DNA from: an uncultured Gammaproteobacteria bacterium
GTDB taxonomy: Bacteria; Patescibacteriota; Microgenomatia; Levybacterales; GWA1-39-11
Direction: 5' to 3'
DNA length: 64,000 nucleotides
NCBI GenBank assembly: GCA_964427615.1
Contig: CAYRUR010000002.1
Location: forward strand, 81,847 to 145,846
The position numbers and the translations under genes are program-made. The notes below the pieces were generated by a model. It searched no databases. It was not told where the DNA came from and saw nothing but the letters and a program-made list of their open reading frames with translations. Shown here piece after piece: positions 5,657 through 64,000 of this stretch; positions within the stretch are counted from its first letter, which is position 1, and every line of letters begins with the position of its first letter.

Positions 5657-5718
5657 GAATAGAGATGGGTAAGAAATCGAAAATTGCTGTTTTTGCCTTT
5701 ATTGCCATTGATGTACTT
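5645..5718 (+). repeat. copy 2 of ~73-bp direct repeat (native cyoA promoter and 5-prime end)
   Basis: matches 424-497. Confidence 0.8.
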
Positions 5719-6591: not shown

Positions 6592-6599
6592 TAATTACT

Positions 6600-43651: not shown

Positions 43652-44780
43652 AAGGTCACTTATTACCATACTGTTACTTGTCCTTTTTATTCTTGCTGGA
43701 ATAGCTATACTCATTTTGCTATTTGAAATAATAAAAACACGAGATACAGAAGATAAGAAAGCACCACCTCCCCCAAAAACTCAAAAAGAAGATTTTTCAG
43801 TTACTGCTTGGATTCCTTATTGGGATCAAGAAAACGCAATAAAAAGTGCGACAGAAAATATTACCAAACTAGATGCTATTGGAGTATTTTGGTATAAATT
43901 AACTCCTGAAGGAACAGTAACAGTATATGAAAAAGCAATTGAGGATCAACGATTTATAGAATTTGCTCATGAAAATGATGTAAAAGTCTACGCCCTCGTT
44001 GCAAACCTACCAGAAGAAGGAGAAGAGACAACAGGTTGGGACCCGGAACGAGTCGAAAATGTTATAAGTAATGAAGACCAAAGAGAAAAACATATCAATG
44101 ACTTAGTGAATCTGGTAATATATAAAAATTTTGATGGACTAGCTCTGGACTACGAAAATCTAAGGCCAGAACAAAAAGACAATTTTAGTCTTTTTATCCA
44201 AGAACTGGCTCAGGCGCTACACCAACAACAAAAATCTTTAGAAATAGCCATTCATCCAAAAACATCTGAAAATCCTAATACAGAATTCTCTGGTGCACTC
44301 GCCCAAGACTACCAAAAGATTGCTCAATATGCAGATCACCTGCATTTTATGATGTATACTCAACATGGTAGAGAATCAAAGCCTGGACCTTCCAGCACCC
44401 CCGAGAGAACCGAAGCAGCACTTAATTACGCAATTGAAAAACTACATATTCCCAAAGAAAAAATTATTATGGGAATTGGCCTTTTTGGCTTAGAATGGCA
44501 AGTTGAAGGGAATGGATTTACAGGAGTTGAAGATGACCTCACCTATAATCAGGTAGAAAATTTCATAGAGCAGAATAAAACAGACATGTATAGAGATGAG
44601 AATTCACAAAGTGTAGAAATAACTTTTAGAGAAAGTAATACCTTTCATGTAATTTGGATAAATGACGCAAAAAGCATAAAAAGAAGAATACAGATAGCAA
44701 AAAATTATGATGTAGGAGGTGTTTCTCTCTGGAGACTTGGTGGTGAAGATCCAGAGATATGGAATTTTATTACAAAGTAG
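43638..44780 (+). CDS. GH18-like glycoside hydrolase-fold protein with N-terminal TM anchor
   Basis: 380 aa; FDGLALDYE resembles GH18 DGxDxDWE catalytic motif. Confidence 0.55.
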   Translation: MHYSKRSLITILLLVLFILAGIAILILLFEIIKTRDTEDKKAPPPPKTQKEDFSVTAWIPYWDQENAIKSATENITKLDAIGVFWYKLTPEGTVTVYEKAIEDQRFIEFAHENDVKVYALVANLPEEGEETTGWDPERVENVISNEDQREKHINDLVNLVIYKNFDGLALDYENLRPEQKDNFSLFIQELAQALHQQQKSLEIAIHPKTSENPNTEFSGALAQDYQKIAQYADHLHFMMYTQHGRESKPGPSSTPERTEAALNYAIEKLHIPKEKIIMGIGLFGLEWQVEGNGFTGVEDDLTYNQVENFIEQNKTDMYRDENSQSVEITFRESNTFHVIWINDAKSIKRRIQIAKNYDVGGVSLWRLGGEDPEIWNFITK

Positions 44781-44864: not shown

Positions 44865-45675
44865 GATTGATCCAGAAGTATTACGCACCCATGCAGAACA
44901 GACAGTTACCCAGCTGAGGGAAGTTGCGGAACACCACGAAAGAACGTATCCAGCAAACATAGATGTAGTTTGGGTTTTCAGTGGTCCTGGCACGTACTAT
45001 AATCCCATACTTGAAGAAAAAGATCCGGAATTTGCCAGATGGATGGATAGAGACAGAATACGCTTAGGTATAGCTTTAGTACGTGAGATAACAGCAAGTA
45101 AAATAAGACAAGCAAACACTACAGTAAAAGCACATGATTTACAAACAGCAGATTTAGAGAATTACAGTCCTATTTTTTACTACAATGGCATACCAGCAGA
45201 AAATGCTGCTTTCAGACGTGCCTTGCAAGACACAAATCAAAAGTGGCCAAAAACAAAACTGGATACCAGTAAAATACTTATAGCAGATACTTTTCTAGAA
45301 CCCGACGGAACACCTCAGTTAATACGCCACACTCTAGATCAAGTAGTCAACTTTTTTCAGGAAGTAGAAAAGGCTGATAAGGATCCTTCACACCCACTTC
45401 ATGGAAGACACACTGTGGCTCTCGTTTCCAATATTGAGCACTTCGTTCGTATCCCTCACTACCTCAATCTCTATAATAAAAAACGTGAAGAAGAAGGAAA
45501 AGAGCCTCTGCAGTTCTGGGCATATGGGCTCAGAACACGAGAGGTCGAGGCATACCAACAAGGTACGTATTTAGGAAAATTACCTGATGTATATCAAAAA
45601 AGTGAAATTGATAGACTCATAACCTATGCAGAACAAGGACATTTGGATATAGAACCTGCTTATTTCAGAACTTAA
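44851..45675 (+). CDS. putative DUF218/YdcF-like protein, start unresolved (open frame from 44851; first in-frame ATG only at 45043; upstream ATG 44847 is out of frame by one GACA unit)
   Basis: N-terminal extension VVWVFSGPGTYYN and TVALVSNIEHFVRI resemble DUF218 conserved blocks; track ORF 45043-45675. Confidence 0.45.
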   Translation, partial: QTDRQIDPEVLRTHAEQTVTQLREVAEHHERTYPANIDVVWVFSGPGTYYNPILEEKDPEFARWMDRDRIRLGIALVREITASKIRQANTTVKAHDLQTADLENYSPIFYYNGIPAENAAFRRALQDTNQKWPKTKLDTSKILIADTFLEPDGTPQLIRHTLDQVVNFFQEVEKADKDPSHPLHGRHTVALVSNIEHFVRIPHYLNLYNKKREEEGKEPLQFWAYGLRTREVEAYQQGTYLGKLPDVYQKSEIDRLITYAEQGHLDIEPAYFRT

Positions 45676-46888
45676 TACTTCTCCTTGGGCTTACCCAACT
45701 ACCGGTAGATCTCTCGGAAAATACAAGAGGAAGAGTAAAAAGAAATAACAGAGAGTCGATATACCGTAAAAAGAAAAATCCTACTCCATACAAAAGCATC
45801 AGAGGTTTTTTCTCTAAGATAGTTGCAAAAATGGTTAACAGATAATCCATTAAAAATAATCCTACAAATAGCTCTGCAAGTGAAATATTTGGTTGTATTG
45901 CTATGACATGAAATTGATTTAGTAACAAAAGTGAGAGAACCAGAGGAGAAGCCAATACTACCAAAGCATATAAAAGCATTTCTATCAAAAACCCTCCTAA
46001 AAAAAGCCAGAACATGCTGGGCCATACACCATTACGAAAAATGGTTTGCCAAAACCCCAAATTCCATCGCTTTACCTGCTTAATATAATCCTTCAAATAA
46101 TAAGGATCCTGACTATACCCTTTCACTGCTGGAATATAAGCAACATTTCCCAATTTTTTCTTTCTTACCTCAAAGGTCATGTTGAAATCTTCAATAACCA
46201 AGTTTGGTGCATCAATAGAAAGTTTTTTTAATACTTTTGTTTTGTACACAGATAACCCCCCTGGAATAATATACGTGACATTGGTATACTTCCACGTCAT
46301 CCCATATCGCATACCTAATTGCAAAATTCTCCATAATCGCACACGATAGGCAATAAAAAAATTTTCCCAAAATCCATAATTCTTTATTTCAGTAACTTGA
46401 TGAGGAGCAACCGCAGCTGTATCTTTTTGTGAGAGAAGTGGTAAGGCGTATTTCATGTAATCTGGATGAATCATTACATCTGCATCGTGAATAAGAATTG
46501 CCTTATATTTCTCATATAAGTTATAACGCTTCATGGTATATACCAACGCCTTTGCTTTTCCTCCATTTGGTTTCTGTGTTATTACATTCACCCGCATATT
46601 GCGTGCTACCGTTGCTGTTTTATCAGTAGAAGAATCATTTACCAAATAAATATTTTTTTTAGGGAGTACTTTTGCTAACGCCTCTATTGTTTTTCTAATA
46701 CTCGTCTCCTCATTATGAGCGGGAATAATGGCAGCAACTTCATTTATTGTAATTGTTTTTGGCTTTCTTCCTTTTCTTTTTGGATGTCTTTTAGGGATTT
46801 TTTCAAACACAAACCGTACCCACCCGATTGCTAACCAGAGGCTAAAATTCACTCCCATTAATGTCATGAAGGATATTAACCATACCAT
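45665..46888 (-). CDS. family 2 glycosyltransferase, polytopic membrane (processive-type)
   Basis: 407 aa; AAIIPAHNEE, multiple C-terminal TM helices. Confidence 0.7.
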   Translation of the reverse strand: MVWLISFMTLMGVNFSLWLAIGWVRFVFEKIPKRHPKRKGRKPKTITINEVAAIIPAHNEETSIRKTIEALAKVLPKKNIYLVNDSSTDKTATVARNMRVNVITQKPNGGKAKALVYTMKRYNLYEKYKAILIHDADVMIHPDYMKYALPLLSQKDTAAVAPHQVTEIKNYGFWENFFIAYRVRLWRILQLGMRYGMTWKYTNVTYIIPGGLSVYKTKVLKKLSIDAPNLVIEDFNMTFEVRKKKLGNVAYIPAVKGYSQDPYYLKDYIKQVKRWNLGFWQTIFRNGVWPSMFWLFLGGFLIEMLLYALVVLASPLVLSLLLLNQFHVIAIQPNISLAELFVGLFLMDYLLTIFATILEKKPLMLLYGVGFFFLRYIDSLLFLFTLPLVFSERSTGSWVSPRRSIKF

Positions 46889-47817
46889 ACCATCGTTTTT
46901 TTAATCCCGTCTTCCAAATCATACTGCATGTCCCATCCCAAACTACGGATTTTAGATAAATCAGGTACTCTTCTATTGTGATCATGTGCCGGACGTCCCA
47001 CAAAAGAAATACCATTTTTCATGTTTGTAAAATGAAGAAAAGATTCTGCCAAAGCAAGAATCGTCATTTCTCTATCACTTCCCAAGTTATATACCTCTCC
47101 CTTTTCCCCTTTCTCACTCACTACAAGCAGCCCCTCCACAAGGTCATCAACAAAACAAAATGTTCTTGTCTGACTTCCATCGCCTTGTACTGGTAAAGGT
47201 TTTCCCTCTTTGATATTTTTTAGAAATGAGGACATGATCCGAGTATCTAACAGATTCATACCAGGACCAAAGGTATTAAAAATCCTTACAATTTTTACAT
47301 CTACTCCAAATTTATAGCTATATACAAAACAAAGACTTTCTCCAATTCTTTTTCCTTCCTCATAAGGACTTCTTTCACCCAAAGGACTTACATTTCCGGT
47401 ATATTCTTCTCGTTGCGGAAATTGTTCTGGCTGTCCATATACTTCTGAAGAGCTTGCATACACAACCACAGCTTTTGTCTTTTGAGCAAGTTGTAATATA
47501 TTACGGGTGCCAATACTTGAAGTAAGAATCATTTCTTCAGCAAGTGGAATGAGGTTTGAGACACCAGTAGGACAGGCTAGATGAAAAATAAAATCAATCT
47601 GCCCTATCTTTTTCTCCATTTCAGGAGAGAATGGATTAGTTATATCCCATTTAAAAAAAGAAAATCGTGGGTATACGGATAAGTGGGTGAGATTTTCTCC
47701 AGTAGAAGTAATAAAGTTATCAACAGCTATCACTGTATGCCCTGCATCCAAAAGTCTTTTGCAAAGATTCATTCCCAAAAATCCTGCCCCACCAGTAACC
47801 AATATTCTTTTTTTCAT
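46876..47817 (-). CDS. NAD-dependent epimerase/dehydratase, UDP-glucuronate decarboxylase (UDP-xylose synthase)-like
   Basis: 313 aa; ILVTGGAGFLG Rossmann motif, YASSSEVYG catalytic region. Confidence 0.7.
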   Translation of the reverse strand: MKKRILVTGGAGFLGMNLCKRLLDAGHTVIAVDNFITSTGENLTHLSVYPRFSFFKWDITNPFSPEMEKKIGQIDFIFHLACPTGVSNLIPLAEEMILTSSIGTRNILQLAQKTKAVVVYASSSEVYGQPEQFPQREEYTGNVSPLGERSPYEEGKRIGESLCFVYSYKFGVDVKIVRIFNTFGPGMNLLDTRIMSSFLKNIKEGKPLPVQGDGSQTRTFCFVDDLVEGLLVVSEKGEKGEVYNLGSDREMTILALAESFLHFTNMKNGISFVGRPAHDHNRRVPDLSKIRSLGWDMQYDLEDGIKKTMVWYG

Positions 47818-47838
47818 TATATACTCCTTTGCACACTC

Positions 47839-49149
47839 TCAAATATGAAATCTGCCAAATAAAAGCTTAGAATTACCGTTTGGACGAGGCGGCATGGTAT
47901 GCAATTCAAATACCAGTGGATTCTTTTCTTTACGTAATAACCCTCTTGTATCAAGAATAGGAACGCCATACTGCAATAAATCTTTATAGGGAATAACTTT
48001 ATGATCAGTAACAATAATCAAAAGGTCTGTATTTTTAACATTTTCTTCTTTCAAAGCACTATTTTGTAATCCTTCAAATTCCGCAACATAGGGATCATGA
48101 TAGGATACTTCTACTCCATATTGCTGAAGCTTATGAGTAATCACTGTTGCTACTGATTCTCTCGTGTCTGCCACATCTGGCTTGTAAGTTACTCCCAACA
48201 ACATCACTCGTTTTTTGCCCCCATGTCCATTTGTTTGGGCAAGTATTTGCATTGTTCTGTCAACCACTTTAAGTGGCTGTCCTTCATTAACATACCCTGC
48301 CAACTCTACCATGGACAGTGAAAGGCCATGTTGTTTTGCATCCTCTACTAAATAAAAAGGATCTACAGGGATACAATGTCCTCCCACTCCTGGTCCCGGA
48401 TAATGAGGCATAAAAGCAAAAGGCTTTGTACCTGCTGCCTCTATCACTTCCCAAATATCTATCCCTACACTTCTTGAATAGTCAGCTATTTGATTCATAA
48501 GACTGATATTCACGAGTCTAAATGTGTTTTCTAAGAGTTTTGACATCTCCGCTGTCTCTAAAGTAGAGACAACAAATACTTCTTTTACCATTGTCTTATA
48601 AAACTGTTCTGCAATTGCTATTGAGTACTCTCCGTACCCTCCCACAACTTTAGGAATATCACGAAATGAGTAGATTGTATTTCCAGGATCAATTCTCTCT
48701 GGAGAATAAGAAAGAAAGAAATCAATATCTGGCACAAGCCCTGACTTTTCAAGAATAGGCAAGGCAACCATACGGGTAGTACCAGGAGCAATAGAGCTCT
48801 CCACGGTTATCAGCTGTCCTGGTCTTAAATAAGTAGCAACTGTTTCAAATGCTTGTTTAAATGGTTGAAGGTCGGGGATTTTTAGTGCATCTACTGGAGT
48901 GGGTACACTCACACATACAACATCACAAGAAGAAAGCTTTGAAAAATCGACAGTTGCAGAAAAGCGGGGAATATGCATACTCTTAACCCTTTCAACAGCT
49001 TGGGAAGCCGTATCAAAACCAAGCACCTCATATCCTGCTTCGCTTGCACCTTGCCCTAAGGTCTTGCCTACATACCCTACACCCACTATACCTACTCGGG
49101 CCTTTTTGTTAATAATCTTGCCATATAACTCCCCCTTTTTTTCCATCAA
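47839..49149 (-). CDS. UDP-glucose/GDP-mannose dehydrogenase-family nucleotide-sugar dehydrogenase
   Basis: 436 aa; VGIVGVGYVG, GGHCIPVD catalytic Cys. Confidence 0.8.
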   Translation of the reverse strand: MMEKKGELYGKIINKKARVGIVGVGYVGKTLGQGASEAGYEVLGFDTASQAVERVKSMHIPRFSATVDFSKLSSCDVVCVSVPTPVDALKIPDLQPFKQAFETVATYLRPGQLITVESSIAPGTTRMVALPILEKSGLVPDIDFFLSYSPERIDPGNTIYSFRDIPKVVGGYGEYSIAIAEQFYKTMVKEVFVVSTLETAEMSKLLENTFRLVNISLMNQIADYSRSVGIDIWEVIEAAGTKPFAFMPHYPGPGVGGHCIPVDPFYLVEDAKQHGLSLSMVELAGYVNEGQPLKVVDRTMQILAQTNGHGGKKRVMLLGVTYKPDVADTRESVATVITHKLQQYGVEVSYHDPYVAEFEGLQNSALKEENVKNTDLLIIVTDHKVIPYKDLLQYGVPILDTRGLLRKEKNPLVFELHTMPPRPNGNSKLLFGRFHI

Positions 49150-49260: not shown

Positions 49261-50058
49261 TTACTTCTTATTAACAATAAGGGAAAGAAGAAAAAGAAAA
49301 AGAGCTATCAAAACAATAGATCCTCCTGCTGCCAAATCAAAGTAAAAGGACATAACTACACCACTTATCACAGAAAAAATAGAAATAATCTCAGCAATTA
49401 CAATGGTGTGCAAGAAATCTTTTTTAAATTGTAAAGCAGTAATAACCGGAATAACGACCAGTGCGGAGATGAGCAAAACACCAAGAATAGGAATAGCCAG
49501 AGCGACCGTAAGTGCTGCTAGAATAATAAAGAGAATATTAATAAAGGTTACCGGAATTCCACCAACACGTGCTGATTGTTCGTCAAAAGATACATATACC
49601 AACTCTTTAAAAAACGCCACTACCAACCCGATTATGACAATTCCTAAAATTGCAATACGCACGACATCTGTTTCTCTCACCGCTAAAATGCTACCGAACA
49701 AAAAATTAAAAAGATTTGTATTAAATCCATTGGCAAAGCCTATCAAAACAACTGCCACCGCAAGGCTTCCTGATAGAAAAATAGATAGTGCTGATTCTCC
49801 ATATACTCGTTTGGAAATACGCAATCGTTCAATAGCCACTGATGAAAAAACAGCGGCAATCATCGCAGTAAGCACTGGACTTACACCCAGTAAAAGCCCT
49901 ATAGCTACACCTGCCAATGACACATGAGAAAGAGTGTCAGCAATCAGCGAATAACGACGCAATACCAGAAAAATACCGATAAGAGGAGCAATTACTCCTA
50001 TCACGAGTCCTGCTTGAAGTCCTCTAATAATAAAATCGTATGCAAAAATATCAATCAT
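49261..50058 (-). CDS. metal (Zn/Mn) ABC transporter permease
   Basis: 265 aa polytopic; operon with ATPase and SBP. Confidence 0.75.
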   Translation of the reverse strand: MIDIFAYDFIIRGLQAGLVIGVIAPLIGIFLVLRRYSLIADTLSHVSLAGVAIGLLLGVSPVLTAMIAAVFSSVAIERLRISKRVYGESALSIFLSGSLAVAVVLIGFANGFNTNLFNFLFGSILAVRETDVVRIAILGIVIIGLVVAFFKELVYVSFDEQSARVGGIPVTFINILFIILAALTVALAIPILGVLLISALVVIPVITALQFKKDFLHTIVIAEIISIFSVISGVVMSFYFDLAAGGSIVLIALFLFLLSLIVNKK

Positions 50059-50822
50059 AATATATGTGGACCCGCTACATATTTAATATCTCTTCCATAC
50101 AACTTTTCCAGATAATTCCCTTTTACAAATGTTTCAGTCGCACCATGATACACTAATGTTTGGTTAATACAGGCAATTTCCGTAACCTCATTTGCGACAA
50201 CTCCTATATCATGAGAAACCAAGACTAATGTGAGGTTTAACTTTTGATTCAATTTTCTCAATAAAGTATAAAAGTCTATTTGATTTTTCACATCTACTCC
50301 TGCTGTGGGCTCATCCAGAAAAATAATTTCCGGTTCTCCTGCTAAAGCACGTGCAATGAAAACTCTCTGCTGCTGACCACCGGACAAATCACCTATTCTT
50401 CTCTTAGCAAATTCCTGCATTTCCACTTGTTCCAAAGACCGGTCTATAATTTTTCTATCTTCTTGCGTCAACCAATGAAACAAACCTTTTTTGGCATACC
50501 GTCCCATGGCAACCACTTCTTCAACAGTAATAGGAAATCGGGAATCAAAATTGTGAAATTTTTGAGGAATATAGCCTAATTTTGATTTATCTTTAAATCG
50601 ATTAATAGGTTGTCCAAAGAGTTTTATCTCTCCTTCCTTTATAGGTAAAAGACCTAGTATGAGTCTTAACAAGGTTGACTTTCCTCCTCCGTTGGGGCCG
50701 ATAATTCCTAAGTAATCTCCTCTATGAATTGCAAAAGAGATATCTTTTAACACCAACTCTTTGGCATAAGAAAAAGAGATATGAGAAATTTCTATGATAT
50801 TTTCTGAATGATCTAGTTGCAT
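50055..50822 (-). CDS. metal ABC transporter ATP-binding protein
   Basis: Walker A GPNGGGKST, signature LSGGQQQR. Confidence 0.85.
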   Translation of the reverse strand: MQLDHSENIIEISHISFSYAKELVLKDISFAIHRGDYLGIIGPNGGGKSTLLRLILGLLPIKEGEIKLFGQPINRFKDKSKLGYIPQKFHNFDSRFPITVEEVVAMGRYAKKGLFHWLTQEDRKIIDRSLEQVEMQEFAKRRIGDLSGGQQQRVFIARALAGEPEIIFLDEPTAGVDVKNQIDFYTLLRKLNQKLNLTLVLVSHDIGVVANEVTEIACINQTLVYHGATETFVKGNYLEKLYGRDIKYVAGPHIL

Positions 50823-51736
50823 ACCAACGCCTTTTCTAAATTCGCAAGATTAGCTTCCATGATAGTGAAATAATTTTCACCTTTTGCTTCATCTTCTGGT
50901 GTGAGTCCTTCAGCCGGATTTAAAACCAATGTTTCTACTCCTGTCTCTTGAGCTAGAGTTTGAGAAAATCGTGGACTTGTTAACTCTTCGAAAAAAATAT
51001 ACTTTACCTGCTTTTCCCGCACAAATGTTGCTAATTCAGCCAATTTTCGTGCAGAAGGCTCTTCTTCAGGACTCAGGCCTGAGATAGCCACTTGATTCAA
51101 ATTATATTCCTGAGCTAAATAACCAAAGGCTGCATGAGCGGTTACGATATCTCGTTTTTGACAAGTCGCAAGACCTTGTCTGTACGCACTATCCAACTCC
51201 TGCAAGGAAGCAATTAGTTCATCTGCATTTTTTTGATAGTAAGAAGCGTTTTTCGGATCTTCTTTTTTGAAAGCTTCTGCAATAATTGCCACTTGATGCT
51301 GCGCAAGCTCTGGACTAAGCCATACATGAGGATCAGTACTATGCTCTGCAAAAAGATTTTCATTTATCACAAGCACCTCAACATCCTTGCCTATCAAATT
51401 TTTTTGCATTGCAGGTGCCCAGACCTCAATATGACCATTCAGTAATAGAAGATCACTATGCTGTATCTTTACCACGTCTTGCGTTGTTGGCTCAAATTCA
51501 TGCGCCTCCACTCCTGCCGGAGTAATATTAATAACATGAGCATGATCACCCCCAACTACAGAGGCAAAATAATAGAGAGGGTATAAAGAAGTAACAACAT
51601 CTATTTTTCCTGTGTTACTGGAGTTATTACTCTTCTGAAGCAATAATTGTCCACCAAAAGTAAAGACAAAAACTGCGAAAACAATAACAATAAGCAAGAT
51701 AAGAATTCCTTTATTTTTAACTTTCATTCCTGACAC
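50813..51736 (-). CDS. metal ABC transporter substrate-binding protein (ZnuA/cluster A-I family)
   Basis: 307 aa; HVWLSP motif, signal anchor. Confidence 0.75.
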   Translation of the reverse strand: MSGMKVKNKGILILLIVIVFAVFVFTFGGQLLLQKSNNSSNTGKIDVVTSLYPLYYFASVVGGDHAHVINITPAGVEAHEFEPTTQDVVKIQHSDLLLLNGHIEVWAPAMQKNLIGKDVEVLVINENLFAEHSTDPHVWLSPELAQHQVAIIAEAFKKEDPKNASYYQKNADELIASLQELDSAYRQGLATCQKRDIVTAHAAFGYLAQEYNLNQVAISGLSPEEEPSARKLAELATFVREKQVKYIFFEELTSPRFSQTLAQETGVETLVLNPAEGLTPEDEAKGENYFTIMEANLANLEKALVCN

Positions 51737-52146
51737 CTTTCACAAACTCCAAAAAATTCTAATGAGTGACGCTTTACTAAAAAGTTTTTTTCCTGTTCTA
51801 CATTTTTTTCAAAATCTTCCACAACACAATCTGCAATATCCTGAATTGTTCCACATACTTCACAAATCAGATGATGGTGATCGGGTCTTCCAGCTAACTC
51901 ATACCTGAATTTTCCCTCATACAGCTGAATTTGTTTTGCCAGCCCTTTATCCGTAAAAGCATTGATAATACGAAAAACAGTTGCTTGATCCACCTGAATA
52001 TCATTTTTCTGCAGATGCTCTTTTATCATTGAGACATCAACAGGATTATCTGTTTTTTCCAAATATTTAAGAACTGCAATACGTGCAGGAGTCGCACGCA
52101 AAGATATTTCTTTTAACTCCCTTCGACAATCGTGTCTATTTTTCAT
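51724..52146 (-). CDS. Fur-family metalloregulator (Zur-like)
   Basis: 140 aa; HHHLICEVCG...CERC. Confidence 0.75.
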   Translation of the reverse strand: MKNRHDCRRELKEISLRATPARIAVLKYLEKTDNPVDVSMIKEHLQKNDIQVDQATVFRIINAFTDKGLAKQIQLYEGKFRYELAGRPDHHHLICEVCGTIQDIADCVVEDFEKNVEQEKNFLVKRHSLEFFGVCERCQE

Positions 52147-54042: not shown

Positions 54043-56073
54043 ATGAATTGCTCAATGCTTATGAAAATGTTATCTAAAAAGACTCTTCACCTTGCACTCC
54101 CTTCCTTCCTTATTCTTGCTATAGCTGCTATTATCACATCTAACAACACTAATCTCTTCAACTTTCAAGCTGATGCTGATACTGCAAATCCAGAGCCAAA
54201 AGTAATGAATAACCTTTTGTCTAACCCTTCCATGGAAGTCGAAGTAAACGGCGAAGTCGAAGCATGGGGAGCCCGTACATCAAATAATTGGGATAACACA
54301 ATTCATCACTATGGCAATGCTTCTATGCATGTAGTACCTGCTACTGACGCTTACCGCTACTCACATAATACTATTACTCTAGAAGCCGGAAAAACTTATG
54401 TACTGCAAGGCTGGGTTAAAACAGAAAATGCTTCTGGCAGTGGGGTATATATTCGTTATGCCCAAACAAACCCTACTCCAACTAAAGTCTTTACCACTGA
54501 AAAACTAAATGGAACCAATGGCTGGACAAAGGTCACCAAAACCTTCACTCTTCCAGCAGATTATGCAGCAGGACGAGTTGATATTGTTTGGGAGATAACC
54601 GCAGGAGAAGCTTGGATAGACGACGTTGCTCTTTGTGAAAATGAATGTATAGAAGGAATAGCAAATAAGCTTGCGAATTCTTCTATGGAAGTAGTAGTAA
54701 ATGGTGATGCTGAAGCATGGGGAGCGCGAGCAACCAATAACTGGGACAACGCTGTCTACCATTCCGAAACTGCTTCCATGCATGTCGTGCCTGCAAATGA
54801 CGGCTACTACTACGCACATCAAACAATTACTCTTCAAGCAGGATCCACCTATACTATACAAGGATTTATAAAAACAGAAAATGCTTCTGGAAGTGGGGTA
54901 TATATTCGTTATGCTCAAACAAACCCTACTCCAACTAAGGTCTTTACCACTGAAAAACTAACTGGAACTAATGATTGGACAAAGGTCACCAAAACCTTCA
55001 CGCTGCCTGCAGATTATGCAGCAGGACGAGTTGATATTGTTTGGGAAATCAATGCTGGTGAGGCTTGGATTGATGATGTTATGCTCTGCGAAGGAAATGG
55101 TCCTTGTGCCCAAGATACTACTGCTCTCAAAGTATGTGATGAATCAATCCATAACAAATATGTAACCACCGGCCCTGACGGACAGACATATGCCACCTGG
55201 CATCCATCCACAGACCCTGAAACAGGTTGTATCTTCGGACATGAACATGGCAACAATCCGGAAAGCGTTTTGCCAGGATACAAACCAGCATTTGGATACA
55301 CTGCAGGTCGCATGGGCATGACAGAACCACATAATGGATTTAAAGTGTATGCTTTCACTGACTACGATGATGAGAGCTGGGTCGTAACACATCACTTTGG
55401 CACAGCCGGTAGAGGCACGCTTTGTAACCAATTCCATACCATAGATGTTGCCGTAGGACAAGCTAGTGGAGAAGTACTCGCTGATCTACACACTATGGCA
55501 GATCATGGACGTTCTCGATTCTTTGATGGTCAATACATGACACCAGCAGAATGCCCTGATCAAGTAAATATCAATTCCTTTGGTATTAGAAGAATCCCTA
55601 TGTCTCCTGATGGATATGAGCCATGGTTGGTAAATGATAAGATACATCATCTTGGACTCAATGTTGCGCTTAACATCCTAACTTCAGATGCCATCATGGG
55701 CTGTGAAGATCCTACCTGTAGTGTAATGAAGCGCAATGGTACTAACACCGGTTCTCGCAGAAGATTTCAAGCGACAGTAGGATCAAACGGCTTGCAAATT
55801 AACGAAACTGTTACTACTACCAACAGCGGTATCTTTTATACTGACTCTATGGGACATGAGATGAGAATGGCTACTGATTCTGACTCTGTTATGCAATATA
55901 TCAAACCAGGATACCATGGTGAGGCAACTATTGCTCGCAGTGACCAATTGGACGCAGCTCGCGGAGGATGCTGGTACTACAACGGACAAAATGCACCTAT
56001 GGGTTGCTCAACAGGAGACTTGAACGGTGCAGATCCTCTACTCTTACCAACAGAGTTAATTGGATCTAACTAA
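54043..56073 (+). CDS. secreted protein: signal peptide, two tandem CBM-like beta-sandwich modules (~150 aa each), then ~330-aa Cys/His-rich domain of unknown function
   Basis: 676 aa; internal repeat ...ENASGSGVYIRYAQTNPTPTKVFTTEKL...TLPADYAAGRVDIVWEI... present twice. Confidence 0.7.
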   Translation: MNCSMLMKMLSKKTLHLALPSFLILAIAAIITSNNTNLFNFQADADTANPEPKVMNNLLSNPSMEVEVNGEVEAWGARTSNNWDNTIHHYGNASMHVVPATDAYRYSHNTITLEAGKTYVLQGWVKTENASGSGVYIRYAQTNPTPTKVFTTEKLNGTNGWTKVTKTFTLPADYAAGRVDIVWEITAGEAWIDDVALCENECIEGIANKLANSSMEVVVNGDAEAWGARATNNWDNAVYHSETASMHVVPANDGYYYAHQTITLQAGSTYTIQGFIKTENASGSGVYIRYAQTNPTPTKVFTTEKLTGTNDWTKVTKTFTLPADYAAGRVDIVWEINAGEAWIDDVMLCEGNGPCAQDTTALKVCDESIHNKYVTTGPDGQTYATWHPSTDPETGCIFGHEHGNNPESVLPGYKPAFGYTAGRMGMTEPHNGFKVYAFTDYDDESWVVTHHFGTAGRGTLCNQFHTIDVAVGQASGEVLADLHTMADHGRSRFFDGQYMTPAECPDQVNINSFGIRRIPMSPDGYEPWLVNDKIHHLGLNVALNILTSDAIMGCEDPTCSVMKRNGTNTGSRRRFQATVGSNGLQINETVTTTNSGIFYTDSMGHEMRMATDSDSVMQYIKPGYHGEATIARSDQLDAARGGCWYYNGQNAPMGCSTGDLNGADPLLLPTELIGSN

Positions 56074-58089: not shown

Positions 58090-59226
58090 ATGATAAAGCA
58101 GCATATACTGCCTGGCACTAAAAAAATCGCAGTACTACGAGCAAACGGGCTTGGAGATTTCATGTTTGTGCTCCCCGCTCTACAAGCCATACGTGAAACA
58201 TACCCACAAGCAGAAATCGTTTATTTAGGAAAAAATTGGCATAAAGATTTTTTACATCAAAGACCTTCACCTATTGATAAAGTCATAGCCATTCCTAATA
58301 TAAAAGGAGTAGGAGAAGAAAATAATCAACTTGAAGATAAAAAAGAACAAAATCTTTTTTTTGAGAGGATGCAACAAGAGCAATTTGATCTGGCTTTGCA
58401 ACTACATGGAGGAGGAAAATACTCCAACCCATTTATAAAAAAATTAGGGGCCAAAATAACTGCTGGATTAAAAACCCCGGATGCAGAACCACTTACCATT
58501 TCCATTCCTTATATATATTACCAACATGAAATATTGCGCTATCTAGAAGTTGTCTCTTTTATAGGAGCTACGACAAGTAGGATAAATCCAAAAGTTGAGA
58601 TCACAAGAGAAGAAATTGAAGAAGCAAAACCTTTCTTAAGACACACCTCATACGCAGTGTTGCATCCAGGAGCTAGTGATTTAAGAAGAAGATGGCATCC
58701 TGAAAGATTTGCCTATCTTGGTGATTTTCTTGCTCAGCAAGGATTACCCGTATATATTACTGGAACAAAAGAGGAAGAAGAAACCGTAAGTAAAGTTGTG
58801 AGCCATATGCGAAAAAAAGCCATAAATCTTTGTAGTAAACTCTCTTTGAGAGGCTTAACAGGTCTCCTTTCTCAGACAGAAATAGTAATAGCAAATGATA
58901 CAGGACCTCTGCATCTTGCAGAAGCACTTGGCACTCCAACAGTTGGCATCTACTGGTGTGGTAATCTCATTAACGCAACTCCTCTGACACGTACTCTCAA
59001 TCGCGCACTTCCTTCTTGGATTACCATCTGTCCTCTGTGTGGCACTGACATTGCTCGTCCAGGATTTCCTTTTGAGTATGAGAAAACGAATTGTTCTCAT
59101 CTTACTTCTTTCGTAAATGCCGTAAGTACTGAGGAGGTTATTTCCGCTGTAACTCATTTGCTAGATCAGACTACAATCACCAAAAAAAGATACAAAGATA
59201 AACCTTTTCACTTTTTCCATAAATAA
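58090..59226 (+). CDS. family 9 glycosyltransferase (heptosyltransferase-like)
   Basis: 378 aa; N-terminal LRANGLGDFMFVLPALQAIRETYP typical of GT9. Confidence 0.65.
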   Translation: MIKQHILPGTKKIAVLRANGLGDFMFVLPALQAIRETYPQAEIVYLGKNWHKDFLHQRPSPIDKVIAIPNIKGVGEENNQLEDKKEQNLFFERMQQEQFDLALQLHGGGKYSNPFIKKLGAKITAGLKTPDAEPLTISIPYIYYQHEILRYLEVVSFIGATTSRINPKVEITREEIEEAKPFLRHTSYAVLHPGASDLRRRWHPERFAYLGDFLAQQGLPVYITGTKEEEETVSKVVSHMRKKAINLCSKLSLRGLTGLLSQTEIVIANDTGPLHLAEALGTPTVGIYWCGNLINATPLTRTLNRALPSWITICPLCGTDIARPGFPFEYEKTNCSHLTSFVNAVSTEEVISAVTHLLDQTTITKKRYKDKPFHFFHK

Positions 59227-59457
59227 CTAATTCTTTTTTATGAAGTCACTCTAAAAAGCACACTACCATAAATACTACAGGTTTATTAATTAATCCTCGC
59301 TATAAGAAAATCATACACTATTCATATCCAAAAAAAGAACAGGAAAAGGGTAATTCATATTACTATAAGATTTACTTCTCTTACCTGCTTCTTACTTACT
59401 TCTCGTTGTATTCTTAGGTTTTACCATTATCATAACTCGTGTAATAAAAAAAAAGTC

Positions 59458-60519
59458 ATGATAACGCAAAGACCCCTAAAAGCCATAAGAGTTAAACAAA
59501 TTGCAGTCTTAAGAGCACTTCAACTGGGTGATTTACTTGTTGCTATTCCTGCCATACGGGCTTTAAAAAAGGAATTGCCTAACGCAACTATTACCCTCAT
59601 TAGTCTTCCTTGTGCGGAAGAGTTTGTAAAACGATTTGATCATTACTTTGATGATTTTATTCCTTTCCCAGGATATCCAGGCCTTCCAGAACAAAAAATA
59701 TCTTTTGACAAACTAATTTCTTTTATACACGAAGTTAGAAAAAAACAATTTGATCTTCTGATCCAAATGCAAGGAAACGGTTCTGTCACCAACCCTTTGA
59801 TAGAGCTTCTCGGAGCAAAAAAAAATGCAGGCTACTATCGCAAAATAGATTATCAACCCAAAGGCTTATTCCTGGAATATCCAGAAGAAAAAAATGAGAT
59901 TGAAAAACATATGGCACTTATGCATTATCTTGGCATAAAACACAAAAGTACCCACCTTGAAATACCGGTAACTTCCCAAGAACAAAAAGAGACAGAAAAA
60001 ATAAAAAAAACCCATCGTCTCCACAACTATATAGGTATTCATCCAGGAGCAAGCAATAAGAATAAACAGTGGAATGCGCACCACTTCGCTTCTGTGGCTG
60101 ACTACTTTGCACTACAAGGATACCAAATCGTTGTTACCGGAACCACAAAAGACAAAAAAGCAGCAGATGATATGCAAAAATATATGCAGACAAAGCCTCT
60201 ATCCCTTATTGGAAAAACATCCTTGGGTATGCTAGCAGAAATTCTCCAATCTGCTCGCTTAGTCATCACCAATGACACGGCTACTTCCCACATAGCTTCA
60301 GCAGTAAAAACAAAAAGTGTGATTATCTTTTCTCCCTCATCACAAATACACCGCTGGAAACCACTTAATACCACAATACATATTGCTCTTTCTCCTAAAG
60401 ATACTCAAAATCCGCAATTTGTCATAGATACGGCACTACTATTATTAAACAACTCAAAAAAGTCAGAAACGTCGCAGTCAATAAATACGAAAACAAAACA
60501 CATACCAATTACTCTATGA
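59458..60519 (+). CDS. family 9 glycosyltransferase (heptosyltransferase-like), second copy
   Basis: 353 aa; VLRALQLGDLLVAIPAIRALKKELP. Confidence 0.65.
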   Translation: MITQRPLKAIRVKQIAVLRALQLGDLLVAIPAIRALKKELPNATITLISLPCAEEFVKRFDHYFDDFIPFPGYPGLPEQKISFDKLISFIHEVRKKQFDLLIQMQGNGSVTNPLIELLGAKKNAGYYRKIDYQPKGLFLEYPEEKNEIEKHMALMHYLGIKHKSTHLEIPVTSQEQKETEKIKKTHRLHNYIGIHPGASNKNKQWNAHHFASVADYFALQGYQIVVTGTTKDKKAADDMQKYMQTKPLSLIGKTSLGMLAEILQSARLVITNDTATSHIASAVKTKSVIIFSPSSQIHRWKPLNTTIHIALSPKDTQNPQFVIDTALLLLNNSKKSETSQSINTKTKHIPITL

Positions 60520-61526
60520 AAAACCAAACGCAAAAAAGAAAAAAAATATTTACCTGGCATATACATGGAAGTTACTTGTACTATCTTTCACAAACTAATA
60601 GCGACATTTTTCTTCCCACAAAGCCTGGAACACATGAAGGGTATACCGGAAAAAGCGGTCCCTTCCCCTGGCCGGATACCGTACATGAAATACCAGCAGA
60701 AGAGGTAAAAAATTATGATTTTGATCTTATCCTTTTCCAGTCAAAGAAAAATTATCAAGAGGATCAGTACGAAATTTTAAGTCCAAGACAAAGAACACTA
60801 CCCAAAGTTTATTTAGAACATGATCCTCCCCAACAACACCCCACAGACACGATACATTGGGTGCAAGACCCTTCCACCACCCTCGTACAGGTCACACACT
60901 TTAACGATCTCATGTGGGATACAGGAATAACACCCACAAAAGTAATAGAACATGGTGCAATCACACCTCCACCTGTTACCTATACTGGCACTATTCCCAA
61001 AGGAATTGTCGTAATTAACAACCTAAAAGAGCGAGGAAGAAGGCTTGGATATGACATTTTTGAAAAAGTCAGAAAAGAGATCCCGCTTGACATCGTTGGT
61101 ATGAATTCAAAAGAAATTGGCGGATTAGGAGAAGTTCCCCACCATGAACTGCCTGCTTTTATAGCTCAATACCGTTTCTTTTTTCATCCCGTTAGATATA
61201 CCAGTCTTGCACTTTCGCTTGTGGAGGCAATGATGGTAGGTATGCCTGTAGTTGCATTGTCAACCACAGAAATAACCAGTGTAATTAAAAACGGAGTAAA
61301 TGGGTATGCAGATACCAACATACAAAAACTCGTTGTGTACATGCACCTGCTTTTGGAGAATGAAGAACTGGCTCATGAAATAGGAAGAGGAGCCAAAATA
61401 ACTGCTCAACAAAAATATAATATCCACCGGTTTAGCAAAGACTGGGAACAACTTTTTACGCTTCTCACAGAAAAAGAAAATATTCTACCAAACTCACCAA
61501 GCATGACAAAAGGAGGAATTATATGA
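60516..61526 (+). CDS. family 4 glycosyltransferase
   Basis: 336 aa; EX7E region SLALSLVEAMMVGMPVV; overlaps neighbours by 4 nt. Confidence 0.65.
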   Translation: MKNQTQKRKKIFTWHIHGSYLYYLSQTNSDIFLPTKPGTHEGYTGKSGPFPWPDTVHEIPAEEVKNYDFDLILFQSKKNYQEDQYEILSPRQRTLPKVYLEHDPPQQHPTDTIHWVQDPSTTLVQVTHFNDLMWDTGITPTKVIEHGAITPPPVTYTGTIPKGIVVINNLKERGRRLGYDIFEKVRKEIPLDIVGMNSKEIGGLGEVPHHELPAFIAQYRFFFHPVRYTSLALSLVEAMMVGMPVVALSTTEITSVIKNGVNGYADTNIQKLVVYMHLLLENEELAHEIGRGAKITAQQKYNIHRFSKDWEQLFTLLTEKENILPNSPSMTKGGII

Positions 61527-63457
61527 AAAAAAGAATACTATTTATATCAGAACACGCTTCACCCCTTGCCACAGTAGGCGGGACAGATGCAGGAGGACAA
61601 AATATTTACGTAGATAAACTCGCAAAAGAGTTAGTGAAACTGGGATATGAAATAGATATTTTTACCCGCTGGGATAATACACAAGTTCCCCAAATTATTC
61701 ATTATCAGCAAGGAATTAGGGTAATTCATATAAAAGCTGGGCCAATTGCTCATCTACCCAAAGAAAAGCTCCTACCCTTCATGAATACATTTACCAAAAA
61801 TGCTCTGCGCTTTATAAAAAAAGAATCCTTACACTACAAACTTGTACATGCTCATTTTTTCATGTCCGCACTGGTAGCTGCAAGACTGAAGGAAAAATTA
61901 GGAATTCCTTTTGTAGTAACCTTCCATGCACTGGGCAAAGTCAGACGCTTACATCAAGGGAAACAAGATACGTTCTCAGACGGACGTTTTGCTATAGAGG
62001 AAATGGTTATCAAAGAAGCAGATCACATTATTGCCGAGTGTCCCCAAGACAGAGAAGATTTAATCTATCACTACAATGCAGACCAAAATAAAATTAGTAT
62101 TATCCCCTGTGGATTTGACCCCCATGAATTCTACCCTATGAATAAACAGCTAGCACGTCTTCAGCTTAAGATTAACCAGGAAGCGTTTGTCATACTACAA
62201 CTTGGACGGATAGTACCACGAAAAGGAGTAGACACCGTTATCAAAGCGGTAGGACATCTTTTGAGAAAAAGAGAAATACCACTAAAATTAATTATTGTCG
62301 GAGGAGACTCCAAAAAGCCTGACCCTGTTATCACGCCTGAAATTGGAAGACTGCAAAACTTAGCAAAAAAGGAAGGCATTACAATACACACTACTTTTAC
62401 GGGAAGAAAGGATAGAAATGAACTACTCACTTACTACAATGCAGCTGATATCTTTGTAAGCACCCCTTGGTATGAACCATTCGGTATTACTCCTCTTGAA
62501 TCAATGGCATGTGGAATCCCTGTTATAGGATCTGAAGTAGGAGGTATTCAATTTAGTGTAACCAACGGTAAAACTGGATTTCTGATACCTCCCAAAAACC
62601 ATAAGGCACTAGCAGAAAAAATAACACTGCTCTACGAAAATCAAAAACTACGAGAACAAATGAGTAATGCTGCCATTAAACGGGTCAACACCTTCTTTAC
62701 TTGGTCCACCGTTGCTTCTTCTGTTTCATCACTCTACGAAAAAATACTCTTCTCTAGTTTTACTCATACACAAGAACACCAAGATACCATTGATATTATA
62801 GAAAATAATTTTGATAACCTCTCTACAGTGATAGAAAATACAAAAAAAACGTTGCGTATTCCTATCTATCATGCTGCCTCAATTTTGGTAAAAAGTATTC
62901 GCTCTGAAGGAAAAATTCTGATTTGTGGCAATGGAGGTAGTGCATGTGATGCACAACATTTTGCAGTAGAACTAGTAGGACACTTCATGTTAGACAAAAG
63001 AACTGCACTCCCTGCTCTTGCACTCAATACTGACTCATCCATTTTAACTGCTGTTCCGAATGACTTTGCATTTACCGATGTTTTTGCCAGACAAGTAGAA
63101 GCATTAGGAAAGCCTGGAGATATACTTTTTGGCATAAGTACCAGCGGAAATTCTAAAAATATTCTTAAAGCATTTAAGCAGGCAAAAAAGAAAAATATGA
63201 TCTGTATTGGATTACTTGGAAAAAATGGAGGTGCTTTAAAAGAGTTATGTGACATTGCTCTCGTAGTCCCATCAAATAATACCCAAACAATTCAGGAAAT
63301 ACATACCAACATTATTCACACCTTGTGTGAAATTATAGAAAAGCAACTCTTTTCCTCAAAAACAACTCCAAAAAAAGCACAGGTTGCATCACCACCTCAC
63401 CCTAAGAAGGCATTGTACCAACTGAATTTGCAAGAAGAGGAGGAGGAGGAAGAATAA
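61523..63457 (+). CDS. fusion protein: SPS/MshA-like GT4 glycosyltransferase (aa 1-~410) + SIS-domain sedoheptulose-7-phosphate isomerase GmhA (aa ~440-620)
   Basis: N-terminal ASPLATVGGTDAGGQNIYV; C-terminal ILICGNGGSACDAQHFAVELVGHF...FGISTSGNSKNIL classic GmhA motifs. Confidence 0.75.
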   Translation: MKKRILFISEHASPLATVGGTDAGGQNIYVDKLAKELVKLGYEIDIFTRWDNTQVPQIIHYQQGIRVIHIKAGPIAHLPKEKLLPFMNTFTKNALRFIKKESLHYKLVHAHFFMSALVAARLKEKLGIPFVVTFHALGKVRRLHQGKQDTFSDGRFAIEEMVIKEADHIIAECPQDREDLIYHYNADQNKISIIPCGFDPHEFYPMNKQLARLQLKINQEAFVILQLGRIVPRKGVDTVIKAVGHLLRKREIPLKLIIVGGDSKKPDPVITPEIGRLQNLAKKEGITIHTTFTGRKDRNELLTYYNAADIFVSTPWYEPFGITPLESMACGIPVIGSEVGGIQFSVTNGKTGFLIPPKNHKALAEKITLLYENQKLREQMSNAAIKRVNTFFTWSTVASSVSSLYEKILFSSFTHTQEHQDTIDIIENNFDNLSTVIENTKKTLRIPIYHAASILVKSIRSEGKILICGNGGSACDAQHFAVELVGHFMLDKRTALPALALNTDSSILTAVPNDFAFTDVFARQVEALGKPGDILFGISTSGNSKNILKAFKQAKKKNMICIGLLGKNGGALKELCDIALVVPSNNTQTIQEIHTNIIHTLCEIIEKQLFSSKTTPKKAQVASPPHPKKALYQLNLQEEEEEEE

Positions 63458-63461
63458 TACT

Positions 63462-64000
63462 ATGCATACATTAGAAGATAAAGTAGCAATTATAACAGGA
63501 GGAAGTCAAGGACTAGGAAAAGCAATCGCTACTACTCTTGCCCAAAATGGAGCAACAGTTATCATTGCTGATATAAAAGCAGAACAAGCAAGAGAGACAG
63601 CTAACCAGCTAATGGAGGAAGGATACAAAGCAAAAGGAGTATTTGTAGACGTATCTGAGGAAAAAGAAGTGGAAGATTTACTCTCAAAGACAAAAGAAAA
63701 GTACGGAACATTGGATATTATTATCAACAATGCAGGCGTTGATAAAACAAAATTGATTACTGATCTAACTGTTAAAGAATGGGATATGGTTATAGATGTC
63801 AATTTACGAGGACCCTTTTTGATGACAAAATACGCGTTTGATATTATGCAAGACCAGTCCACAGGAGGTCATATTGTAAATATAACCTCTACTGCTGCCA
63901 AACGTGCTTGGGCAGAAGCCTCTGCCTATCACGCAAGCAAATGGGGATTACTAGGATTTAGCTATGCCAGCCATGTAGAAGGAAGAGCATACAACATAAA
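63462..64000 (+). CDS. short-chain dehydrogenase/reductase (SDR), 5-prime part; continues beyond window end
   Basis: translated by hand: MHTLEDKVAIITGGSQGLGKAIA... TGxxxGxG, NNAG, YHASK motifs; not in ORF track because no stop within window. Confidence 0.7.
   Translation, partial: MHTLEDKVAIITGGSQGLGKAIATTLAQNGATVIIADIKAEQARETANQLMEEGYKAKGVFVDVSEEKEVEDLLSKTKEKYGTLDIIINNAGVDKTKLITDLTVKEWDMVIDVNLRGPFLMTKYAFDIMQDQSTGGHIVNITSTAAKRAWAEASAYHASKWGLLGFSYASHVEGRAYNI

Follow-up and report, generated by a model that had tools for sequence, protein, structure and literature searches.

Why should a phosphoheptose isomerase be built into a glycosyltransferase? This question is raised by a 644-aa open reading frame (ORF; 61523–63457, forward strand) in a 64,000-nt stretch of DNA from an uncultured bacterium (contig CAYRUR010000002.1 of assembly GCA_964427615.1, positions 81,847 to 145,846), which we call the window throughout. 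A preliminary description of the window had read the protein as an unusual fusion between a glycosyltransferase of family GT4 and the sedoheptulose-7-phosphate isomerase GmhA, and had proposed that a heptose-7-phosphate is channelled directly into a glycosylated product. To judge from its sequence the protein is a real bifunctional enzyme and belongs to a large uncharacterised family. The model which we favour, tentatively and as just short of an even chance, is that the genes around it make a heptose oligosaccharide independent of lipopolysaccharide (LPS), for which the GT4 domain would glycosylate heptose-7-phosphate and a GmhB-type phosphatase would dephosphorylate the product.

The 644-aa gene is identical in two independent assemblies, and a protein search returned at least 120 full-length GT4–GmhA fusions (95–100% coverage, 51–62% identity), each in its own 90%-identity cluster, from Nitrosospira, Chloroflexota, Saccharibacteria, other Patescibacteria, Balneolaceae and Actinomycetota. 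The ORF is therefore not an assembly artefact, and in sequence space the fusion is not unusual. Its homologues are annotated as 'phosphoheptose isomerase', 'glycosyltransferase' or 'D-inositol-3-phosphate glycosyltransferase'. Pfam recognises Glyco_transf_4 (aa 24–201, 9e-31), Glycos_transf_1 (aa 211–387, 7.5e-47) and SIS_2 (aa 430–566, 5e-27) in the protein, and AlphaFold2 predicts two confident domains (mean pLDDT 86.9, pTM 0.69): a retaining GT4 domain resembling sucrose-phosphate synthase (SPS) and MshA (aa 1–411, 61523–62755) and a GmhA domain with the SIS fold (aa 417–611, 62771–63355). They are joined by a linker of five residues (aa 412–416, 62756–62770); the pLDDT falls below 50 at residues 413–417, between a helix spanning residues 394–411 and another spanning 417–460. 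Residues 612–644 are predicted to be disordered (pLDDT about 33), and this tail, which together with the stop codon occupies 63356–63457, ends in LQEEEEEEEE. Glutamate runs end both the fusion (63431–63454; eight residues, nine counting the LQEE start) and HldE, encoded further downstream (four residues).

The GmhA domain passes the cut-off of the GmhA equivalog model TIGR00441 (217.4 against 209.45, aa 453–606), and among solved structures it matches GmhA of Campylobacter jejuni (1TK9, 3.5e-54 to 1.6e-55) and the entry 2XBL (4e-50). In an alignment with GmhA of Burkholderia pseudomallei the domain shares H479, E483, Q591 and H599 as well as the loops GNGGS (469–473) and STSGNS (539–544), which we take to have the catalytic, zinc-binding and phosphate-binding roles. 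Two of these residues align with positions mutated in deposited structures of the B. pseudomallei enzyme, E483 with the E-to-Q exchange of 5LU5 and Q591 with the Q-to-E exchange of 5LTZ. All sequence tests applied place the 644-aa protein in the GmhA family, and the domain is predicted to be catalytically competent. The reading of the C-terminal 200 aa or so as GmhA in the preliminary description thus holds, and the generic SIS domain without GmhA catalytic residues, which had been considered there as an alternative, is not what the alignment reveals.

For the N-terminal domain the best solved relatives are the Thermosynechococcus SPS (TeSPS; 6KIH, 6e-69 to 1e-68) and the Corynebacterium MshA (CgMshA; 3C48, 7e-67 to 5e-67), which together with the Pfam matches bears out the SPS/MshA-type GT4 first seen in these 410 or so residues; for both domains the scores greatly exceed what chance would give. 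The similarity to RfaG is lower (2.5e-11) and confined to the C-terminal half. The best NCBIfam match is MshA (TIGR03449), whose score of 294.8 bits is below the cut-off of 462.5; the SPS model TIGR02472 gives 142.5 bits, below its cut-off of 576. In the alignment with TeSPS the residues K80, H135, R155, R229, R233, E318 and E326 map onto R105, H158, R178, R249, R253, E331 and E339, and the full-length alignment with CgMshA equates N27, K80, H135 and R155 with N25, K78, H133 and R154. In TeSPS R105 and R178 hold the phosphate of sucrose-6-phosphate, and H158 and E331 are catalytic (PMC7264703). The catalytic His/Glu pair of TeSPS is kept in the GT4 domain, along with the ligands of the nucleotide phosphate, and in 78 orthologues K80 is near-invariant (77 K, 1 R), as is R155 (76 R, 2 G). 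Since both acceptor-phosphate ligands of TeSPS and MshA correspond to the conserved K80 and R155, the acceptor of the GT4 domain is very probably phosphorylated, in agreement with the class of enzymes in which it had been placed.

The family has a signature of its own at this site, F112/A136/Q145/D149, of which F112 and A136 are each present in 77 of the 78 aligned orthologues. The inositol-phosphate ligands of CgMshA are, as we take it, K78, Y110, T134 and R154. Because the family has F and A in place of Y110 and T134, the domain should be counted neither as MshA nor as SPS; it appears to work like both without being a member of either family.

The fusion gene is part of an operon of ten genes in the order GT9a, GT9b, GT4s, GT4–GmhA, a short-chain dehydrogenase/reductase (SDR), a GmhB-type phosphatase, HldE, GT9c, GT2 and a flavin reductase. 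Its first five ORFs, all in the same direction from 58090 to the end of the window, are those of the preliminary description: two GT9 genes, a GT4 gene, the fusion and the SDR gene. The continuation was read from a 17.9-kb contig identical to the window (L001), on which about 5.5 kb of the operon lie past base 64000 (L001 8446–13921). Between most of the genes there is either an overlap of 4 nt or a gap of 4–43 nt; GT9a and GT9b lie 231 nt apart.

Both gmhB and hldE start within 2 kb beyond base 64000. Their absence from the window, pointed out earlier, is literally true and an edge effect; what had been inferred from it fails, as the GmhB and HldE genes follow directly in the same operon. Because they do, the ADP-heptose pathway appears to be present, and the route in the operon looks self-contained. 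As to waaA, the third gene listed as missing, a Pfam scan of window ORFs, not all of them and with no model specific to waaA, brought up no Kdo-transferase or lipid A family. The GmhB-type phosphatase (199 aa, L001, downstream of the SDR gene) belongs to the HAD family and has E. coli GmhB as its nearest structure (3L8E, 4e-32). The enzyme has the complete set of motifs (DxD nucleophile, CxH...CxC zinc loop, R110/K111), at a score of 145 bits, below the GmhB cut-off of 178. We dropped the exchange of K137 for Ile in the cassette proteins as a sign of altered specificity, as the solved Bordetella and Burkholderia GmhB have Ser at this position. The bifunctional HldE (505 aa, L001 9781–11298) scores 394 bits against a full-length cut-off of 521, and its domain II, the adenylyltransferase, passes with 207 against 181.5. 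The C-terminus of HldE, YVLDRSTT, has an Arg at the STTR5 motif position, which in the summary of Tang et al. (2024; PMC11461863) is linked to the synthesis of CDP- and UDP-heptose. The motif is otherwise imperfect, and the match is tentative.

No HldD is encoded in the operon, and the sole epimerase of the window scores 85 against the HldD cut-off of 275; because the operon lacks HldD, the sugar made is likely D,D-heptose. A second sugar unit of the window (45665–49149, reverse strand) comprises a GT2, an NAD-dependent epimerase/dehydratase, which is nearest to dTDP-glucose 4,6-dehydratase and not to HldD, and an NDP-sugar dehydrogenase.

Of the remaining operon products, GT9a (378 aa, 58090–59226, forward strand as all that follow; PF01075 Glyco_transf_9, 3e-29) is heptosyltransferase-like, with heptosyltransferase I as its top NCBIfam match (91 bits, cut-off 185) and orthologues of 36–43% identity in actinobacterial cassettes. 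GT9b (353 aa, 59458–60519; PF01075, 3e-35) overlaps by 4 nt with GT4s (336 aa, 60516–61526), a short GT4-like protein of which the C-terminal GT-B half is the only recognisable part (PF00534, 6e-14, aa 200–294), with the C-terminal region of TarM as its sole relative in the PDB (about 2e-6). The classical SDR (63462–64000, 179 of 242 aa in the window; complete at L001 8446–9174) gives generic SDR/FabG-like NCBIfam matches, none above cut-off, and has orthologues of 50–58% identity at the same cassette position in other phyla. HldE is followed by GT9c (344 aa), GT2 (271 aa) and, at the operon end, an FNR-like flavin reductase (248 aa), a counterpart of which tblastn found in none of the related loci; next comes clpC, convergent to the operon. 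All three GT9 proteins stay below every LPS heptosyltransferase equivalog cut-off of NCBIfam, the best WaaC/WaaF/WaaQ-type scores being 91 against 185, 115 against 134.6 and 94 against 467. The operon holds five or six glycosyltransferases and no flippase, polymerase or lipid-priming enzyme. A Kyte–Doolittle scan gave no convincing transmembrane helix in its products, all of which are predicted to be soluble; where the scan exceeded 1.6, in GT9b, GT4s, GT9c and the reductase, the segments belong to Rossmann-core motifs and were not counted as membrane helices. A promoter and terminator scan remained at chance level, and an Rfam search of the whole window gave no match. A reading as a defence system, suggested by a weak Pfam 'GT4-conflict' match, was abandoned, the PADLOC models giving no hits.

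A scan with one genome per species gave 80 loci, and the operon proteins were compared with the loci by tblastn. The recurring members are GT9b, GT4s, the SPS/MshA-like GT4, the GmhB-like phosphatase and GT9c, with the SDR usually, HldE often and GT2 sometimes among them. GT9b is a core member found in most related loci and as a rule paired with GT4s, which likewise belongs to the core and is present in 72 of 83; the GmhB-like gene is found in 64 of 83. The cassette occurs in at least eight phyla (Bacteroidota, Chloroflexota, the candidate phyla radiation (CPR), Cyanobacteria, Planctomycetota, Elusimicrobiota, Pseudomonadota with Burkholderiales and Nitrosomonadales, and Actinomycetota). Gene calls and Pfam confirmed the pattern in Nitrosospira multiformis, a Saccharibacterium and a metagenome-assembled Chloroflexi genome, and in these three versions no flippase, polymerase or priming transferase was found. 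In the Saccharibacterium GCA_016789455.1 the whole cassette (L084, 10001–20307), with a 2-hydroxyacid dehydrogenase as its last gene, lies between rpoC and rpsL/rpsG on a 1.29-Mb contig.

Other versions carry additional genes. A NodU/CmcH-type carbamoyltransferase is encoded in 45 of 90 loci (45–74% identity; e.g. L015 13262–15007 and L087 14519–16246), a second type of GT2 in 39 and a UXS-like enzyme in 26; all three are frequent in Actinomycetota, Burkholderiales, Planctomycetota and Bacteroidota and absent from the version in the window. MsbA-type ABC exporters are added in some diderm variants, a PIG-L gene is found in 4 of the 90 loci, and the Nitrosospira cassette includes an inositol-monophosphatase-family gene. 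The GT4 is also carried by megaplasmids of Burkholderia, Paraburkholderia and Caballeronia and by Streptomyces plasmids. On the Burkholderia multivorans plasmid NZ_CP020399.1 (L090, 304308–329525) sigma-54 regulators split the cassette, a PIG-L deacetylase lies within it, and stress-type genes (BON, DUF892, DUF2795, CBS, PRC-barrel) surround it. No link was found between this variant and the low-oxygen (lxa) locus of B. cenocepacia, and a Chloroflexia locus (L020) considered as a minimal GT4 plus GmhB module was uninformative.

The connection between the GT4 and GmhA differs among these loci. Judged by frames and stop codons, a single GT4–GmhA ORF is present in the window, in 9 non-actinobacterial loci and in 3 loci of the actinobacterial-type clade. 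About 31 actinobacterial loci have separate adjacent genes in the order GT4, gmhA, hldE, and a GT4 devoid of any GmhA domain is encoded in 24 non-actinobacterial loci (Burkholderiales, Bacteroidota, Planctomycetota, Elusimicrobiota and others). Fused or not, gmhA always stands directly upstream of hldE. The putative acceptor-site residues (K80, H109, F112, T133, H135, A136, R/K141, Q145, D149, R155 and E159) are equal in all fusion states.

A second kind of fusion was found when the databases were searched with an artificial GT4+GmhB chimera. This search returned 64 clusters of natural GT4–GmhB fusions with 99–100% coverage, which have kept every catalytic residue of the GT4 and of the GmhB domain together with the unchanged GT4 signature. 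They occur in Gemmataceae, Gammaproteobacteria and others, are annotated as 'histidinol-phosphate phosphatase family protein', and are part of the same cassette (L087–L089), beside a carbamoyltransferase, GT2 and ABC exporters. Where unfused, GT4 and gmhB are direct neighbours in 12 loci. Fusions of SPS with sucrose-phosphate phosphatase (SPP) and of trehalose-phosphate synthase with its phosphatase (TPS/TPP) are analogous. A GT4 joined in some lineages to the enzyme that forms heptose-7-phosphate and in others to the enzyme family that takes the 7-phosphate off a heptose would conform, by analogy with SPS/SPP and TPS/TPP, to the pattern expected of a sugar-phosphate synthase and its partners.

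The 24 loci in which the GT4 carries no GmhA domain are informative also in what they retain: 20 have the GmhB-like gene, 4 have HldE and 2 have GmhA. Of the four exceptions without GmhB, two are contig ends. If ADP-heptose supply were the only role of these enzymes, GmhB should be lost as readily as HldE and GmhA. GmhB is the most dispensable enzyme of the ADP-heptose pathway in E. coli, and several of the 24 loci belong to Burkholderiales, which make LPS heptose. The K80/R155 site, the retention of GmhB and the two alternative kinds of fusion lend partial and indirect support to a heptose-phosphate acceptor.

According to the model that we favour, the GmhA domain would convert sedoheptulose-7-phosphate into heptose-7-phosphate, which would then enter two branches. 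In the first the HldE kinase, GmhB and the HldE adenylyltransferase would give ADP-D,D-heptose as donor for the GT9 enzymes. In the second heptose-7-phosphate would serve as acceptor of the SPS/MshA-like GT4, yielding a hexosyl (possibly N-acetylglucosaminyl, GlcNAc) heptose-7-phosphate from which the GmhB-type phosphatase would remove the phosphate in the manner of SPS/SPP or TPS/TPP. GT9a–c, GT4s and GT2 would lengthen this primer to an LPS-independent heptose oligosaccharide. The donor of the GT4 may be UDP-GlcNAc, as suggested by the similarity to MshA and the PIG-L deacetylase of the B. multivorans variant. Taken further, heptose-7-phosphate would be both precursor of ADP-heptose and acceptor of the GT4, and the hexosyl-heptose would prime an inner-core-like glycan in monoderm, CPR and diderm bacteria; such an undescribed route we consider possible, if less likely than not.

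Several observations weigh against the model. The flexible five-residue linker and the pTM of 0.69 mean that AlphaFold2 does not predict a defined inter-domain channel, and the active-site signature of the GT4 is unchanged with or without GmhA. The fusion state is labile, with fused, adjacent-separate and standalone forms interspersed on a rough neighbour-joining tree without support values. Both types of fusion join operon neighbours, and adjacency alone could yield both. Two of the four MshA phosphate ligands named above are replaced (Y110 by F112 and T134 by A136), a single GmhB-like enzyme would need to serve two substrates in monoderm hosts, and the CPR assignment of the host, given below, rests on a single marker protein. 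An obligatory, rigid channel between GT4 and GmhA finds no support in the linker, the lability or the signature; the fusion is facultative rather than essential, a coupling of neighbouring steps.

There is an alternative explanation which we hold to be possible, with a chance clearly below even. In it GmhA, HldE and GmhB would make ADP-heptose for the three GT9 enzymes and do nothing else, the GT4, as a further transferase of the same glycan, would take as acceptor either the growing chain or a molecule other than heptose, and the fusions would be neutral mergers of operon neighbours. The fixed position of gmhA upstream of hldE agrees with this, and so do the separate GT4 and gmhA genes of the roughly 31 actinobacterial loci, the lack of GmhA in 22 of the 24 loci with a GT4 devoid of the GmhA domain, the interspersed fusion states on the GT4 tree, the 12 loci with unfused, immediately neighbouring GT4 and gmhB, and the predicted flexibility of the linker. 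It leaves unexplained, however, the phosphorylated acceptor to which the conserved K80/R155 site points and the retention of GmhB in loci that have mostly lost HldE and GmhA. Of the other overlapping neighbours, moreover, neither GT4s–GT4 nor GmhB–HldE fusions were found among the matches listed.

It is improbable that the SIS domain has no catalytic function and serves the GT4 for oligomerisation or regulation while a free GmhA encoded elsewhere isomerises the sugar phosphate. GmhA is a tetramer and could in this way organise the GT4, and in one locus, of the uncultured bacterium sfNOB_N2 (L007, 10001–11933), the fused SIS domain has indeed lost all catalytic residues (GNGGS to GVRDS, H479Y, E483S, Q591A). 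The cassette of this locus is without GmhB and HldE, and its dead SIS domain hints at a structural role of the domain or at decay under way. Apart from this case the catalytic and zinc residues are intact in the window protein and in 9 other aligned fused orthologues, the equivalog cut-off for GmhA is passed, and neither the window nor the 18-kb contig contains a second gmhA.

Less probable still is a mycothiol- or bacillithiol-like pathway, in which the GT4 would be a GlcNAc transferase of the MshA/BshA type acting on inositol phosphate or another small acceptor, with the heptose genes as unrelated neighbours. MshA is the top NCBIfam match (295 bits), an inositol-monophosphatase-family gene is found in the Nitrosospira cassette, and PIG-L genes occur in the B. 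multivorans variant and 18 kb upstream in the window. But the MshA score stays well under 462.5, 77 of the 78 orthologues have F at the position of Y110 and likewise 77 have A at that of T134, no mshC- or mshD-like genes were seen, PIG-L is found in just 4 of the 90 loci, and the GT4 is linked to the genes for GT9, GmhB and HldE far too consistently for coincidence.

For the question whether the locus might belong to an LPS core the host is of importance. The best named relatives of the ClpC encoded beside the operon are all from Patescibacteria (Saccharimonadia, Parcubacteria and Microgenomates, 65–67% identity), so that on this one marker protein the host is most likely a CPR/Patescibacteria bacterium. 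To our knowledge CPR bacteria lack LPS, and the window ORFs scanned included no lipid A or Kdo genes (lpx, kds, waaA). Given a host that resembles CPR bacteria, canonical LPS-core heptosylation is probably not what the locus serves, and because the same cassette without membrane proteins is found in Actinomycetota, Chloroflexota, Cyanobacteria, Planctomycetota, Bacteroidota and Burkholderiales it is very probably not a routine rfa cluster. The earlier view that the product route differs from LPS-core heptosylation is supported by the ClpC and by the sub-threshold GT9 scores; of the counter-argument raised with it, a canonical ADP-heptose and LPS-core locus, the ADP-heptose genes were found, so that it applies in part. 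In the Burkholderiales and Planctomycetota variants the additional carbamoyltransferase and MsbA-type ABC exporters are reminiscent of the Pseudomonas aeruginosa core locus. Even so, a routine inner-core (rfa/waa) locus, with the GT9s as WaaC/WaaF/WaaQ, a WaaG-like GT4 and heptose genes for the core, is the least probable explanation of all: the combination of GT9, GT4 and ADP-heptose genes resembles waaC–waaF–waaG clusters, and against this stand three GT9s below every cut-off, a GT4 that matches SPS and MshA at about 1e-68 and RfaG at just 2.5e-11 over its C-terminal half, window ORFs that, as far as scanned, include no Kdo or lipid A gene, the Patescibacteria-like ClpC, and the same cassette in Actinomycetota, Chloroflexota and Saccharibacteria.

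The window contains further genes of note. A cyo-type quinol oxidase is represented by its subunits II and I (5665–8573, forward strand), which, given the Patescibacteria-like ClpC, points to an aerobic or oxygen-tolerant CPR lineage; histidine kinases are encoded as well. A PIG-L deacetylase (weakly BshB-like), a WbqC-like protein and a GH18 hydrolase follow in a row at 42291–44780 (forward). A ZnuA/ZnuC/ZnuB-like zinc uptake operon, followed by a 140-aa regulator which by its sequence looks like a member of the Fur family, is located at 49261–52146 (reverse). Upstream of the operon a 676-aa protein (54043–56073, forward) combines an N-terminal hydrophobic stretch and two near-identical CBM_4_9 modules of about 170 aa with a large C-terminal region without family match.

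ADP-heptose is a building block of LPS and a potent innate-immune agonist. In a full-text search of the open-access literature, outside which earlier work is possible, we found no paper on the GT4–GmhA fusion, the GT4–GmhB fusion or the cassette. It has been remarked in passing that some CPR bacteria encode ADP-heptose synthesis, and a salt-induced 'heptosyltransferase' has been reported in Frankia. ADP-heptose biosynthetic genes have been found far outside the Gram-negative bacteria, with their purpose there left open in the summary of that work (PMC11461863). The cassette described here, which is portable, comprises roughly 8 to 11 genes with their own heptose supply and in the version of the window comes without lipid-priming or export machinery, is a concrete and genetically tractable candidate for the use of nucleotide-heptose in such bacteria. 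If the SPS-like GT4 does use heptose-7-phosphate, it would form with the phosphatase a new class of sugar-phosphate synthase/phosphatase pair and take part in making a new kind of bacterial glycan; an undescribed heptose-7-phosphate route would then explain why ADP-heptose genes are so wide-spread outside the classical Gram-negatives. Culturable carriers are available with Paenarthrobacter aurescens TC1, Nitrosospira multiformis, B. multivorans and, on a plasmid, Streptomyces rimosus. The database names 'phosphoheptose isomerase', 'D-inositol-3-phosphate glycosyltransferase' and 'histidinol-phosphate phosphatase family protein' need to be corrected for this family.

The single parts of the cassette are of known kinds, and as a cluster it resembles an LPS inner-core kit without lipid A–Kdo. 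It shares with the inner-core genes (waaC/waaF/waaQ and waaG with gmhA/hldE/gmhB/hldD) the enzyme families and the supply of nucleotide-heptose; it differs in that HldD is missing, no Kdo or lipid A genes were seen in the scanned ORFs, the GT9s are below cut-off, the GT4 is not WaaG-like, and the hosts include monoderm and CPR lineages. GmhA of E. coli (2I22), B. pseudomallei (2X3Y/2XBL) and C. jejuni (1TK9) has the fold family, the residues and the phosphate loops of the C-terminal 195 aa of the fusion, but is a free tetrameric protein, whereas here it is the C-terminal domain of a glycosyltransferase in a host probably without LPS. With MshA of C. glutamicum (3C48/3C4Q) the GT4 can be aligned over the full length and shares the counterparts of N25, K78, H133 and R154, yet it scores below cut-off, has Y110 and T134 replaced, and stands in no mycothiol context and is linked to heptose genes instead. 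Pathway enzymes are likewise joined, and outside the classical Gram-negatives, in the multidomain enzymes of NDP-heptose synthesis, HldE and the HENases with kinase or isomerase/kinase domains (PMC11461863); in the present case the fusion partner is a glycosyltransferase, a consumer and not a supply enzyme, an architecture that the summary of that work does not include. The closest structural relative of the GT4 is SPS (TeSPS, 6KIH), with which it shares the catalytic, the nucleotide-phosphate and the acceptor-phosphate ligands, while its score (142 against 576) and its signature (F112, A136) set it apart. As in the pairs SPS/SPP, TPS/TPP and GpgS/GpgP, a phosphatase gene is linked to the glycosyltransferase and in some lineages fused to it, here one for a GmhB-type HAD phosphatase and not for SPP. 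The cassette thus has the phosphate-binding acceptor site, the linked phosphatase and the natural glycosyltransferase–phosphatase fusions of SPS/SPP-type systems, and in contrast to SPS/SPP the product of the GT4 would probably be extended by five more transferases instead of being the end product.

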